DNA of 64,000 nucleotides, from the NCBI GenBank assembly GCA_018653365.1, contig JABIAG010000002.1, positions 32,001-96,000 of the forward strand, written 5' to 3'. Position numbers and translations under genes: made by a program. Source of the DNA: Candidatus Woesearchaeota archaeon. Lineage in GTDB: Archaea; Nanobdellota; Nanobdellia; Woesearchaeales; JABIAG01. Below the pieces are notes generated by a model, which was not told where the DNA came from, made no database searches, and saw only the letters and a list, made by a program, of their open reading frames with translations. Shown here one piece after another: positions 10,121-64,000 of the stretch. The stretch's first letter is position 1. Each line of letters begins with the position of its first letter.

Positions 10121-10197
10121 TGGGGCAACCGGGATTTATGTCATCACTTCGTTCTGGACAAATCCCTATTGTTTGTAAACCAATTTAGGATAAGAAA
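10121..10197 (-). repeat. 17-bp duplication of the tRNA-Phe 3' end carried on a GAACGAAGTGA-capped hairpin
   Basis: 10121-10137 is identical to 10198-10214; hairpin 10131-10166 with loop motif at 10144-10154. Confidence 0.85.
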
Positions 10198-10302
10198 TGG
10201 GGCAACCGGGATTTGAACCCGGGACACCTGCGTCTTCAGCGCAGCGCTCTCCCAGTCTGAGCTATTGTTCTGGTTTCAAAAGCCGTAACTTCCAAAATCC
10301 CC
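10198..10302 (-). tRNA. tRNA-Phe(GAA) with a 31-nt intron at 4/5 (10268-10298)
   Basis: Removing 10268-10298 restores the acceptor stem GGGGCAA/TTGCCCC-A; canonical D, anticodon (CT GAA GA) and T arms; bulge-helix geometry fits. Confidence 0.9.
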
Positions 10303-10430
10303 AGTAAAACCCAGACAAGGTTAGGATTTATCATATATTTAAATGCTTTTCGTTTTTTTTCACTGGACATTTTTGTGCTGCACTGGACAAACGCTGCCCC
10401 AAAGTTTATAAAAAAACTTGATTCTGTTTT

Positions 10431-10573
10431 AAAAGAGCCTCGCGCAAAACTCTTTACAAAAACTTTTCCCTCAAAGAGGTCGGAACTGGTGTTCCTAAAA
10501 GTTTTTTGTGAGTTTCGCTGGTTGAGTCTCTTTTTTTGCCAAATCCAAAGTTTTGTGTAGTGAAAACTTTGGA
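10431..10573. repeat. Large branched inverted repeat (10431-10534) plus an 11-bp hairpin (10544-10573) upstream of the endonuclease gene
   Basis: AAAAGAGCCTC/GAGTCTCTTTT, GCAAAACTC/GAGTTTCGC, ACAAAAACTTTT/AAAAGTTTTTTGT, inner CCTC/GAGG and GGAAC/GTTCC; TCCAAAGTTTT/AAAACTTTGGA. Confidence 0.75.
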
Positions 10574-10583
10574 GGTTAAGAAA

Positions 10584-11330
10584 ATGAATAAAAAACCACT
10601 TTTAGTATTTGATGATGTATTAAGAACATACAAGTCTGAATATCACGGAAGAAAAGCATTTGAGAGTTACATGTCTTGGTTTCCGTTAATAGTTTCCCCT
10701 TGTCTTGCGGGAATTGTTGCAGATTTAATGTGTGATGGACATTTACAAGGTAAAAAATGGAGGTTTGATTACACTTCCAATTCTATTGAAGAGTTAGAGA
10801 GATTCAACAGAACGATTCATTCTTTATTCAAAGTTAAAGGTAAAGTAAGAAAGTGTACAACCAATAAATATGAAACTTTTAATCTAGGTGTAAATAACAG
10901 TCCTTTAGCAAGAGTGTTGAAACTTCTAGAAGTCCCTGCAGGAGCCAAGGTTTTATCTAGTTTTTCCATTCCTGATTGGATTCTTGCTGATAAGACTCTG
11001 TTTGGTAGATTCATAAATCGTTTAGTTAGTTGTGAAGGGTCTGTTGATGTAAAAAATAAATGTATTGACATTAGAATGTCAAAGTCTGAAGACTTGATTG
11101 TTGACGGTTTGTCATTCTTCAAAGATATTCAAAATTACTTGTGGAATTATTTTGAGATTAAAACAACAAACCCTTTTTTAGATCGAAGTTTCAATTTAAG
11201 AAAAGATGGGATAAAAACAAAGACGATCCGACTAAAAATAAAAAGGAAAGAATCTCTTATAACTTTCAACAAATTCATAGGTATTGATGATAAAATTAAG
11301 AATAAAAAATTAAAAAGAATAATTGGTTAA
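10584..11330 (+). CDS. Free-standing two-motif LAGLIDADG homing endonuclease (intein/DOD-like)
   Basis: LAGIVADLMCDGH and FINRLVSCEGSV motifs, IPDWIL linker; GGAGG upstream of ATG 10584; no intein splicing ends. Confidence 0.8.
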   Translation: MNKKPLLVFDDVLRTYKSEYHGRKAFESYMSWFPLIVSPCLAGIVADLMCDGHLQGKKWRFDYTSNSIEELERFNRTIHSLFKVKGKVRKCTTNKYETFNLGVNNSPLARVLKLLEVPAGAKVLSSFSIPDWILADKTLFGRFINRLVSCEGSVDVKNKCIDIRMSKSEDLIVDGLSFFKDIQNYLWNYFEIKTTNPFLDRSFNLRKDGIKTKTIRLKIKRKESLITFNKFIGIDDKIKNKKLKRIIG

Positions 11331-11711
11331 TTATTCTACAACTTCTTCTTCAACTGAACTTTCAGGTGTTTCTTCAGCTTCATCAGGTGATTCAGTTGGT
11401 GCAGCTTCTGTTGCGGGTGTATCTCCACTTACAACTTCTAACTTACCAAACTTACCTGTGGATAATTGTAATTCGCCTTGCCATTCTCCAACCCAGCCGT
11501 TCTCAATATGGATTTTGTCTCCAACGTTTACTTTGTCTACGTCTTCATTCCATAGTGTGAGTGTTACTGTTCCTGTTGAGTCTTTTACTGTTGCATTACA
11601 TACTTTGCCTGATTTTCCGAACTTTTCGAACTCTCTTGCTTCTGCTTTTTCTGCAACTTCTACTACTACATCTACATTTCCTGTTTTTGCTTTTAGATCT
11701 TTTATTTCCAT
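11331..11711 (-). CDS. Single OB-fold ssDNA-binding protein (SSB/RPA) with an acidic tail
   Basis: KDSTGTVTLTLWNE, IENGWVGEWQGELQL; acidic C-terminus. Confidence 0.85.
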   Translation of the reverse strand: MEIKDLKAKTGNVDVVVEVAEKAEAREFEKFGKSGKVCNATVKDSTGTVTLTLWNEDVDKVNVGDKIHIENGWVGEWQGELQLSTGKFGKLEVVSGDTPATEAAPTESPDEAEETPESSVEEEVVE

Positions 11712-11750
11712 TTTAAATACCTCATTGATAAAAAGAAATTAATTAGATCT

Positions 11751-61684: not shown

Positions 61685-62368
61685 GATTGTTTTATGCACA
61701 AATAATGCTTTTAGTTTGTCTTTGAATAAGAAAATTGATAAGATTACACTTCCAGCAAATGCGAATACAATTAGTGCTAGGTTAAATACTGGGTTAGTGA
61801 ATGAATCACCTAATGCCGCTGCAATGAATACTGTTGGCAAGGCCCCAATTAGCATGATGAGGAAGAATTCCTTTAATTTTAGTTTTGCTAGTGCTGCAGA
61901 GATTACTATTAGTTCATTAGGAAAGATGGGGATTAACCGTGCTACATATATTGCATACACTGCATCTTTTTTCATCAGTTTGTTGAGGTATTTCAAATCA
62001 TTAAGTTTGCCTTTTTCTTTTACAAATTTGTTATTGAACTTTTTTACTATCATAAATAGCAGTAGTGAACCTATTAGCAATCCGGTCAAACTATAAAATG
62101 CCCCTTTTAGCGTTCCAAATAAAAATCCTGAAAGTATCATTAATAAAAATGTTGGAATAAATTCAAAAAAGGTAAATAATAAAAATATGCCTAAAAAGAG
62201 TAATATTGCATATGCTCCTGTTGATCCAATTAGATCTCGTAACGCATCAATAGAAATTATTCTTTCTATATCATTTTTTATTATGATGAATATTATGAAT
62301 ATTAGTAGTGCTGCGTATAACGGTGCAGACATTTGTTTAATTATTTTTATTAATTTTTTCTTATGCAT
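61676..62368 (-). CDS. TVP38/TMEM64/DedA (VTT-domain) membrane protein
   Basis: SGFLFG..G, ARLIPIFP, IGALP. Confidence 0.85.
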   Translation of the reverse strand: MHKKKLIKIIKQMSAPLYAALLIFIIFIIIKNDIERIISIDALRDLIGSTGAYAILLFLGIFLLFTFFEFIPTFLLMILSGFLFGTLKGAFYSLTGLLIGSLLLFMIVKKFNNKFVKEKGKLNDLKYLNKLMKKDAVYAIYVARLIPIFPNELIVISAALAKLKLKEFFLIMLIGALPTVFIAAALGDSFTNPVFNLALIVFAFAGSVILSIFLFKDKLKALFVHKTIKV

Positions 62369-62429
62369 ACTCCAAAATATAGATTATGCGTATTTAAACT
62401 TTGCGATTTATTAATTCTAAGACTGGGGG

Positions 62430-63146
62430 CTAATTGACTGAACTTGTAAGTTCTATGCTTATTGCGTCTTCTTTTATTTTTATTTTCATGGGGCATTTCT
62501 TATATTCTAATTGATTGTCTTCACAATACTTAATTATTTTTTCTTCATCACCTTTTACTAGAATGTTCAATCCGTCTCCTTGTAGGATGTCAAATTCTTT
62601 CAAATCTTTACTTACTTGTGTTTTTAGTTTTTTTAGCTTTTCTAGTCTTTTATCTATCTCTTTTACTTTTTCTTCTAACTCTTTTGCATCTCCCTTAAAA
62701 TCACTTTCATAATTCATTTCTATGTTGGTTGCAATCATTCCTCCCTGCCCTAATTCTATCACTTTGTGGTTTCCAAAACTGCATACTACTATGTCTGCTT
62801 TACATTTTCTTGTTCCTATACTGCCGGTTACATCTCCAATATAAAACACGTTTTTATTTCTTTCAGTATTTTGTAAAAATGCATATGCTGGCATATCGTT
62901 AAAGATTACACATCCGTTTTTGATTGGATCAAAATCAATTATTCCTCTTTCAGTTTTTATTTCAATTATCTCAAATCCTAATTTTTTCCCGTATTGCGCA
63001 TATGTGTACCATCCTCCCTGGTCGGGTACGTATAGTTTTTTGCAGCCTTTTTTCTTTGCTGTTTGTAATGCGAGAAATATTGCTTTATTTCCTCTTGATA
63101 CTAACAAAATGTTTTTCTTTCCTGTTAGTTTTTTTAGGTTTTCCAT
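62430..63146 (-). CDS. Short PLP-dependent aminotransferase-like protein (DegT/DnrJ fold)
   Basis: SRGNKAI, VPDQGGW, IGDVTGSIG, SFGNHK..ELGQGGMI. Confidence 0.6.
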   Translation of the reverse strand: MENLKKLTGKKNILLVSRGNKAIFLALQTAKKKGCKKLYVPDQGGWYTYAQYGKKLGFEIIEIKTERGIIDFDPIKNGCVIFNDMPAYAFLQNTERNKNVFYIGDVTGSIGTRKCKADIVVCSFGNHKVIELGQGGMIATNIEMNYESDFKGDAKELEEKVKEIDKRLEKLKKLKTQVSKDLKEFDILQGDGLNILVKGDEEKIIKYCEDNQLEYKKCPMKIKIKEDAISIELTSSVN

Positions 63147-63219
63147 CTTTTTGTTTATTGTTTAGTTCTTATAAACTTTTTCTAAATCTTTTTAAATCAC
63201 ATTAAATTCATTTATTGTT

Positions 63220-63801
63220 ATGACCGATTATGATGCAAATTCTGAAGGAGAGCTTCCGTATTTAGATTCGTTTAAAGTGGGAGATTTTGGTGCGATCCTG
63301 AGTTCTGCAGCATTAGCTAGATTAGAATCACAAATGCCTGGTGCTGTTTACATACATCTTGATACTGTTATGGATTATCTTGGAGCGGAGTTTATTGCTG
63401 ATCCTAACCGCGCAGCTGAAACAATTCGTGCTTATTGTGGGCGTTTACCTCCTGGTGAAGGGGTAGATGTTGGAGCGGGATTGGTGGAAGCGTTAAGAAC
63501 TCGTCCTGCGGAAGTTATTAATCAACTTGTTGAACTTGTTTTAAACTCAGGTTTGGTGGATGACGAATTTAGAGAACGCAGAGAACCTGGTGATGATCTT
63601 CCTTGGGGTGAAGAGATAGCTCTTGCAGATCCTGATTCTGGTTTGACTCTTAATTATTTTGGTGAAGGTGTTGCATCTAGTGGTATGGAAGGAACCTGTT
63701 GGGAGGATCGTTTTTATGATACTGAACACACACGTAGGGTGCATGAAAGAGTGTGTGGTGATAATTCTGGCGATTGTGTCCCTGATGATCTTCCTTTCTA
63801 A
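63220..63801 (+). CDS. Orphan acidic hypothetical protein
   Basis: 193-aa ORF. Confidence 0.5.
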   Translation: MTDYDANSEGELPYLDSFKVGDFGAILSSAALARLESQMPGAVYIHLDTVMDYLGAEFIADPNRAAETIRAYCGRLPPGEGVDVGAGLVEALRTRPAEVINQLVELVLNSGLVDDEFRERREPGDDLPWGEEIALADPDSGLTLNYFGEGVASSGMEGTCWEDRFYDTEHTRRVHERVCGDNSGDCVPDDLPF

Positions 63802-63838
63802 AAAACTTTATATAAAATTCTAATAAATCTTTTTTTGC

Positions 63839-63970
63839 GCGGGAGTGGCAGAGTGGTCAAATGCGCTAGGTTGAGGTAGACGAAAATCAAGATTTTCGAA
63901 GTTCGTAAGTCTTCGACTTCAAACGCCTAGTTCCTTAGTGGATGCGCGGGTTCGATTCCCGTCTCCCGCA
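63839..63970 (+). tRNA. tRNA-Leu(GAG) with a 48-nt intron at 37/38 (63877-63924)
   Basis: GCGGGAG/CTCCCGC-A; long variable arm; central helix UUGA/UCAA with 3-nt bulges. Confidence 0.93.
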
Positions 63971-64000
63971 TTTCTTTTTTTTTGTCTGAGCGAAGTGAAG

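Follow-up and report, generated by a model that had tools for sequence, protein, structure and literature searches.

GA-capped hairpin inserts that duplicate tRNA and protein-gene ends form a mobile micro-element family in a Woesearchaeota genome

Within a 64,000-nucleotide stretch of Candidatus Woesearchaeota DNA (the window), three tRNA genes are each followed by a short insert with a GA-capped hairpin, beyond which the tRNA 3′ end is repeated. This raises the question of what these inserts are and how they reach their sites. At tRNA-Phe(GAA) (10198–10304, minus strand), whose acceptor-stem intron is absent in genomes G001 and G002, a 17-bp tail copy beginning at T-loop position 57 (10198–10214) is followed by an insert (10138–10197) composed of trailer, small hairpin (10169–10183), arm (10160–10166) and capped hairpin; the cap (10144–10154) comprises tandem G·A pairs, a 2-bp stem and a GAA triloop, and a second 17-bp tail copy (10121–10137) leads into the ancestral trailer. 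At tRNA-Arg(CCT) (37284–37402, plus strand; D-loop intron), 14-bp tail copies (37391–37404 and 37452–37465) enclose an insert (37405–37451) with a degenerate cap (37403–37413), ACGGAGTGA at 37405, and an arm plus capped hairpin (37420–37450; cap 37434–37445). tRNA-Leu(GAG) (63839–63972, plus strand; anticodon-loop intron) carries its first tail copy at 63945–63972 and an insert (63973–64000; cap 63988–63998) that runs past the window end, continues with a second hairpin common to the RFC-S site, and then reaches the tail repeat that an earlier note had predicted (18 bp exact, ~27 bp with decay). These tRNA inserts measure ~47–80 bp.

Further copies lie away from tRNAs. Between convergent genes, a subfamily A copy (61625–61687, plus strand; arm and cap 61641–61672, cap 61657–61667) lies between two 15-bp copies of the adjacent gene's end (61625–61639 and 61673–61687), a duplication that the earlier note overlooked; the two copies differ by one synonymous change. 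A degenerate copy with a broken inner pair (28551–28608, plus strand; cap 28568–28579) sits between 13-bp direct repeats, another degenerate subfamily A copy (34117–34151, plus strand) occupies an intergenic/promoter region, and a subfamily A remnant (46813–46830, minus strand) has an intact variant at the same site in G002. Every cap and both tail repeats listed in the earlier note, as well as its partial copies, were located. The window also holds a subfamily B copy absent from that note (50101–50234, plus strand), a two-hairpin 53-bp element (50145–50197) flanked by perfect 37-bp repeats (50101–50137 and 50198–50234).

The genome-wide motif search that the note had proposed recovered 15 exact matches against 0–4 in order-4 Markov genomes, clearly above background, and 14 of the 15 are non-coding, a compartment comprising 11% of the genome (p = 8e-13; non-coding null mean 0.23, chance ~0.2). 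Within the window alone, with one mismatch allowed, the count was 6 versus 3.4 expected and not significant. We delineated a protein-free family of non-coding hairpin elements of 30–80 nt, with about 30–34 copies across this archaeon's tiny genome, located at tRNA gene ends, protein-gene ends and promoters. The proposed preference for tRNA tails holds as an enrichment, with 6 of the 32 copies outside introns located there (p = 6e-4), but tRNAs account for only about a quarter of all copies; the other three quarters or so occupy promoters or the ends of protein genes. Copies at tRNAs always follow the sense strand, those in promoters run antisense to the gene concerned, and the cap also occurs inside tRNA-Ser and tRNA-Asn introns. 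The target duplication varies in length from 13 to 68 bp and leaves the target gene whole, and tandem arrays of elements are present. The G-rich strand carries 22 of 27 copies (p = 8e-4), a bias that is marginal after allowing for gene orientation (p = 0.05 against gene bias); HUH elements prefer the same strand (PMC6006769).

Comparison of orthologous sites revealed filled and empty counterparts at six tRNAs and three non-tRNA sites. Because sites filled in some species are empty in others, the GA-capped inserts are a mobile element, in agreement with the tiny non-autonomous element that the note had envisaged. The Phe (G001, G002), Arg (G002), Leu (G001) and Lys sites and the three non-tRNA sites are empty in sister species, and His and Gly sites are filled there. 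The same sites are occupied by different element variants in different species, and an identical arm and upstream hairpin recur at tRNA-Phe, -Gly and -His, the Gly and His sites of G002 holding homologues of the Phe insert. This shared unit, together with the conserved stems of subfamily B, contradicts the view that only the cap is conserved; the arms are in part carried with the element rather than wholly specific to each site. Patchy occupancy and non-tRNA copies do not fit the note's alternatives of a 3′-processing signal or decoy att site.

An assembly artefact at the Phe, Arg, Leu and 61657 inserts is unlikely; an ENA contig of another assembly (possibly from the same study) matches exactly throughout the Phe and Arg inserts, and the Leu insert is crossed without difference by Logan contigs of two additional runs, one of them also spanning that at 61657. 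Among the joints listed for contigs of four runs, which drop rare variants, there was no circle, empty allele or insert-skipping joint. Viral scans returned no carrier virus, their matches resembling coding sequence or chance, and a metagenome scan for the element returned solely the G002 locus. The literature searched contained no description of such elements in DPANN.

Across 41 non-coding copies, the cap covaries as a DNA-type mini-hairpin (GA/GA plus cGN(N)Ag), consistent with the note's reading. Pairing was observed in 37/41 (inner), 35/41 (next) and 28/41 copies versus 29, 18 and 15 after shuffling, counts that are not independent because the copies are related. There are 24 triloops, and only three of the 17 tetraloops are GNRA. 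Such loops are far more stable as DNA than as RNA and bind SSB poorly (PMC13037366); ViennaRNA z-scores were unremarkable, the model leaving sheared G·A pairs unscored. The 3′ junction occupies a constant position at the terminal hairpin's foot, with duplication beginning 5–7 nt past the cap in 8 of the 11 non-array cases that score well and 0–1 nt past the last hairpin in most subfamily B copies, and the ancestral flank adjoins copy 2. Complementarity between arm and host, as claimed earlier, stands at Phe, Arg and 61657, where the arm pairs with the host copy, and extends to local targets at Lys, Ser and promoter sites. It fails at Leu, whose cap has no such arm and where a different hairpin adjoins the repeat, and in subfamily B, whose stems show no significant target pairing (p = 0.67). 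At Ser-CGA and C1:592230, the arm fits copy 1 better than copy 2.

The displaced copy 2 of protein genes stays coding-intact and has been under coding constraint. Copies 1 and 2 differ by 21 synonymous and 6 non-synonymous changes (null 10.9, p about 5e-5), an excess that comes mainly from three sites, two of them in one gene, and that could alternatively reflect repeated conversion by empty alleles. At RFC-S, copy 2 is nearer the outgroup than copy 1 (7 versus 12 and 10 versus 11 differences); a distal bias of differences is suggestive at most (p = 0.06). The intact copy 2 implies that lineages have exchanged alleles of essential genes, and the duplicated gene end seems to help the element spread between lineages.

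No known transposase fits the element. The note suggested looking for an HUH/Y1 gene flanked by the motif; none was found in G000, G002 or G024 (55 copies; genomes 79–99% complete), none tracks the motif, and the motif is absent from all eight Y1 loci. Reverse transcriptase (RVT_1) is missing from G000, G001, G002 and G024 and present in only 5 of 41 relatives, and Cas1 is missing from five carrier genomes; neither gene, nor stand-alone GIY-YIG, tracks the motif. Of 41 relatives, 38 have tyrosine recombinases, whatever the motif load, and a clear element copy lies at only 1 of 30 recombinase loci; G000 has two XerA-like genes, one with an element copy at its 3′ end. The LAGLIDADG ORF adjoining tRNA-Phe was rejected as the mover, being present at just one of six tail-duplicated tRNAs.

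The explanation that we favour, tentatively and with slightly less than even confidence, is a non-autonomous family of 30–80 nt that moves as folded ssDNA and spreads in two steps, copy-in followed by homing. During copy-in at a new site, a 3′ end nicked or stalled where the target segment begins, on fork-exposed ssDNA, would copy the element beginning at the element's 3′ end and then return to the template 13–68 nt back, often at T-rich microhomology, thereby duplicating the target. The enzyme, host-encoded or supplied in trans, would read the terminal hairpin. In subfamily A, arm–target pairing would favour T-loops (junction T55|C56) and TATA regions, and fold-back copying would keep the arm matched. 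During homing, because the duplicate is a conserved tRNA or essential-gene end, the cassette would possess homology arms on both sides and could recombine into alleles that are still empty in other lineages, arriving either as a linear fragment or as a popped-out mini-circle. The donor gene end would then come first, with the resident end as copy 2, and repeated pop-in would generate the tandem arrays.

Movement might instead proceed through RNA, with read-through transcripts or circular tRNA introns inserted by SINE-like TPRT and an RT acting in trans. A constant 3′ end combined with duplications of variable length is what marks TPRT, and the tRNA copies are all sense-strand, with caps inside tRNA-Ser and tRNA-Asn introns; the scarcity of RT genes, DNA-type loops, lack of poly(A) and antisense promoter copies nevertheless render this route unlikely. 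Marginally less probable than the RNA route is a mechanism in which XerA, a host tyrosine recombinase, integrates mini-circles of folded ssDNA (made up of target copy, trailer, arm and cap) by a single strand exchange, as in CTX phage and integron attC. It accounts for the donor-first, resident-second order, the fixed junction and the arrays, and G000 offers its XerA-like pair, yet junctions by inspection lack a dif- or attC-like consensus (those of subfamily B share no sequence), recombinase distribution is indifferent to motif load, copies at recombinase loci are rare, and the first capture of a new target is left unexplained. In an integron/Xer comparison, XerA was present and the IntI cut-off was not reached.

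REP/PATE-like elements moved by a transiently present Y1 HUH transposase would be comparable in size, ssDNA hairpin and lagging-template bias, with arrays resembling BIMEs. We consider this improbable given the missing Y1 genes, the motif-free Y1 loci and the unconserved GTAG/CGTC foot; moreover, IS200/IS605 elements are not known to duplicate their target on insertion. A host RNA signal (L7Ae K-loop, 3′-processing or terminator element) is more doubtful still: Phe, Lys and Ser copies do read as box D′…box C′ (CAGA…GTGATGA), but the position needing an unpaired U covaries as a pair (A–T, G–C, C–G), occupancy is patchy among sister species and many promoter copies are antisense. Scars or decoys of integrase-type elements (attR remnants) are the least credible, since the same insert occurs at different tRNAs and at non-tRNA sites, with no cargo, adjacent integrase or long-range tail copies, even though the repeat spans T-loop to 3′ end and displaces the resident end as at tRNA att sites.

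Beyond copy-in and homing themselves, it is conceivable, if somewhat unlikely, that these elements represent a novel class of selfish DNA, micro-elements that lack a transposase, are copied in by host ssDNA enzymes that read their GA-capped mini-hairpin, and home between archaeal lineages via duplicated gene-end arms, exchanging alleles of tRNAs and gene ends and acting as seeds of tRNA introns. Few mobile elements in prokaryotes are smaller, and these survive in streamlined DPANN genomes by restoring each gene end that they hit. Their tRNA-intron copies connect them with the problem of the origin and spread of introns in archaeal tRNAs, and the fixed junction and defined cap provide direct biochemical bait for finding the enzyme.

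Compared with known systems, the elements lack features that define MITEs, REPs, SINEs, casposons and att scars. They share with SINEs and other TPRT retroposons a non-autonomous nature, fixed 3′ end, variable duplication and variable 5′ extent, but differ in lacking a partner RT (genus plus G024) and poly(A), in their DNA-type loops and 30–80-nt size, and in duplications of up to 68 bp with a coding-intact copy 2. Tyrosine-integrase elements that target tRNAs (SSV and pNOB8 types) likewise repeat the T-loop-to-3′-end segment and displace the resident end, but here the inserts between the repeats are only ~47–80 bp, with neither integrase nor cargo, and a single family targets numerous tRNAs as well as gene ends and promoters. 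Like MITEs, the elements are small, non-autonomous and dispersed, but they have no terminal inverted repeats and their 13–68-bp duplications are neither short nor fixed. Casposons entail such repeats and a genomic Cas1, which the five carrier genomes lack; as for a box C/D K-loop, the L3 U position covaries as a pair and boxes are confined to the T-loop subfamily. REP/BIME/REPIN sequences with RAYT, and IS200/IS605 ends (PMC3733652, PMC6006769), are alike in being 20–65-nt intergenic ssDNA hairpins in tandem clusters, with lagging-template bias and gene-end position; our elements differ in their tandem G·A cap, in a long duplication of variable length by which the gene end is restored, in having no Y1 partner flanked by repeats in G000, G002 or G024, and in the absence of a conserved GTAG/GGAG/CGTC tag flanking the 41 copies (GTAG/CGTC in few). 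Mitochondria harbour double-hairpin elements, repetitive hairpin elements and GC clusters, which are likewise described as tiny, protein-free, one- or two-hairpin mobile repeats (PMC2800124, PMC4478555); the present element is distinguished by its archaeal chromosome, conserved cap and long gene-restoring duplications.

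The element family, which the earlier note proposed as tiny mobile hairpins at tRNA tails, is real. In the archaeal source genome (1.09 Mb, 34% GC, 95% complete, with intron-rich tRNAs), all motif coordinates proved correct on re-check, the tail repeats measured 17 bp at tRNA-Phe and 14 bp at tRNA-Arg as claimed, and the predicted repeat of the tRNA-Leu 3′ end is present immediately beyond the end of the window, which spans C3:32001-96000. A genome-wide search for the motif pattern returned 15 matches, against 0-4 in Markov genomes, and 14 of the 15 fell in non-coding DNA (p = 8e-13). 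An ENA contig from another assembly carries the same sequence across the Phe and Arg inserts, and the Leu insert is bridged by contigs from two more runs, in each case without differences.

Comparison with two sister species (G001 and G002) revealed both filled and empty sites, at tRNA and non-tRNA positions alike, as the proposal of mobility anticipated. The Phe, Arg, Lys and Leu-GAG sites are empty in both species wherever the site was found, and G002 has clean empty versions of three non-tRNA sites. Conversely, the His and Gly-TCC sites are filled in G002 and empty in the source genome, and the Gly insert shows homology over its entire length to the one at Phe. Several sites are occupied in two or three species, each by different variants, and tandem arrays with units of 33-94 bp are present. 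At the sites that allowed a judgement, the ancestral flank comes after the second, duplicated gene end (copy 2). We regard the mobility of the element as close to certain.

A manual census yielded ~34 copies in the source genome, more than first reported. Motif and tail duplication occur together at five tRNAs (Phe, Arg-CCT, Leu-GAG, Lys-CTT and Ser-CGA), Leu-TAG retains only a remnant, and two copies lie within tRNA introns: Ser-GGA, and Asn, where the element lies in an intron of the T-loop and its junction is T55|C56 (C3:27330-27560). The suggested preference for tRNA tails holds as an enrichment (p = 6e-4), although the majority of copies lie at other sites. Subfamily A is found chiefly in promoters, where it runs antisense to the gene and duplicates the TATA region. 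Subfamily B, a two-hairpin element at gene ends (for example, window 50145-50197), has 10 copies with repeats of up to ~46 bp. A third type of terminal hairpin is common to the Leu site and the protein-gene site RFC-S. A motif-less insert with tail duplication occurs at tRNA-Ile(GAT) (C1:748577, minus strand; L215) in the source genome and G002 and is absent from G001, and a separate two-hairpin repeat family (window 57431-57469, minus strand) has 5-6 intergenic copies.

The tRNA introns showed associations of their own. All six free-standing LAGLIDADG-like ORFs of the source genome (window 10536-11330, plus strand; C2:126606, C2:81058, C2:78189, C1:751114 and C1:458208) have a tRNA gene with an intron at a distance of 6-231 bp, and the four matches in G001 likewise adjoin tRNAs. 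In G001 and G002, tRNA-Phe has neither the ORF nor an intron in its acceptor stem; this joint absence, with the adjacency, suggests collaborative homing of endonuclease and intron. The capped tRNA-Ser(GGA) intron (C3:102793-102913) is homologous to the tRNA-Ser(CGA) intron of G002 (L257), which suggests intron movement between Ser isoacceptors. The Arg and Leu introns (window 37310-37324 and 63882-63897) have a common palindrome with a two-base loop, which occurs once more between genes.

The statement that only the cap is conserved was half right. The Lys, Ser and promoter arms fit their own local targets, with matches of up to 12 bp, whereas Phe, His and Gly carry the same arm, including a wobble at Gly. 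The arm agrees with copy 1, the gene end before the insert, wherever the two copies differ, and an upstream hairpin covaries between unrelated sites. No significant arm-target pairing was detected in subfamily B (p = 0.67). The subfamily A 3′ junction is fixed at 5-7 nt past the cap (T55|C56 in tRNAs), and most subfamily B copies end 0-1 nt past the last hairpin without a common sequence; the 5′ side varies, as does the length of the duplication.

In protein genes, copy 2 has itself served as coding sequence. Over 11 such duplications, which comprise 150 codons, the two copies differ at 21 synonymous and 6 non-synonymous codons, against 10.9 synonymous expected for a neutral copy 2 (p = 5e-5); three sites contribute 17 of the 21. 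At RFC-S the outgroup is closer to copy 2 than to copy 1, and one shared site has species-specific letters in both copies, so either the two copies are often alleles that stem from distinct functional lineages, or empty alleles refresh copy 2.

Among 41 non-coding copies chosen without requiring pairing, the inner cap pair (A-T, C-G or G-C) formed in 37, against 29 after shuffling, and the next two pairs, beyond the tandem G.A, formed in 35 and 28, against 18 and 15; the copies being related, these counts carry no formal p-value. The loops comprise 24 GNA triloops and 17 tetraloops, of which 3 are GNRA. Loops of the cGNAg and cGNNAg types are far more stable as DNA than as RNA; they withstand nucleases, have low affinity for SSB and are found at primase sites (PMC13037366). 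Loop type and stability therefore favour a single-stranded DNA form over an L7Ae K-loop, and the hairpin probably acts at the DNA level; a host RNA signal is very improbable. The G-rich strand carries 22 of 27 copies (p = 8e-4; p = 0.05 once set against gene bias).

Our preferred model would begin with primed single-strand copy-in from the foot of the terminal hairpin, explaining the fixed 3′ end and variable duplication. Recombinational homing could follow, in which the duplicate of the conserved gene end serves as the second homology arm; this would explain donor-first order, coding-intact copy 2, site reuse and arrays. We hold this full sequence of steps tentatively, at somewhat short of an even chance. 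The HUH/Y1 gene that the earlier note suggested looking for beside the motif did not appear: searches for Y1/HUH, stand-alone GIY-YIG, RT and Cas1 found none in the source genome and none tracking the motif in relatives. Reverse transcriptase supplied in trans is unlikely, and Y1 supplied in trans rather more so. G001 encodes a divergent Y1-like HUH ORF (L228:397-846, 149 aa) with no homologue in the source genome. Xer-type strand exchange ranks barely below reverse transcriptase; XerA-like recombinases exist in the source genome, yet they are nearly universal in the order. The two there (C3:105511-106335 and C1:543804-544613) each have a dif-like site just upstream, and the short hypothetical ORFs that surround the latter may form a dif-module array. 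Scars of att sites are the least probable reading, and none of the viruses searched carried the element.

Among 301 genomes, the T-loop subfamily was detected in this genus alone. Subfamily B also occurs in two further families within the order, with an identical cap and compensatory stem changes, including one tRNA-tail duplication and one 68-bp gene-end duplication. One distant genome (G024; L006, L012, L021 and L030) contains 55 caps within composite repeats of 140-290 bp assembled from many hairpin modules.

The literature searched contained no description of such elements in DPANN archaea. REP elements and SINEs are likewise non-autonomous and similar in size and working, but the element lacks defining features of REP/REPIN, MITEs, SINEs, casposons and att elements alike. 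If the transposase-free homing model holds, it would represent a categorically new kind of element.
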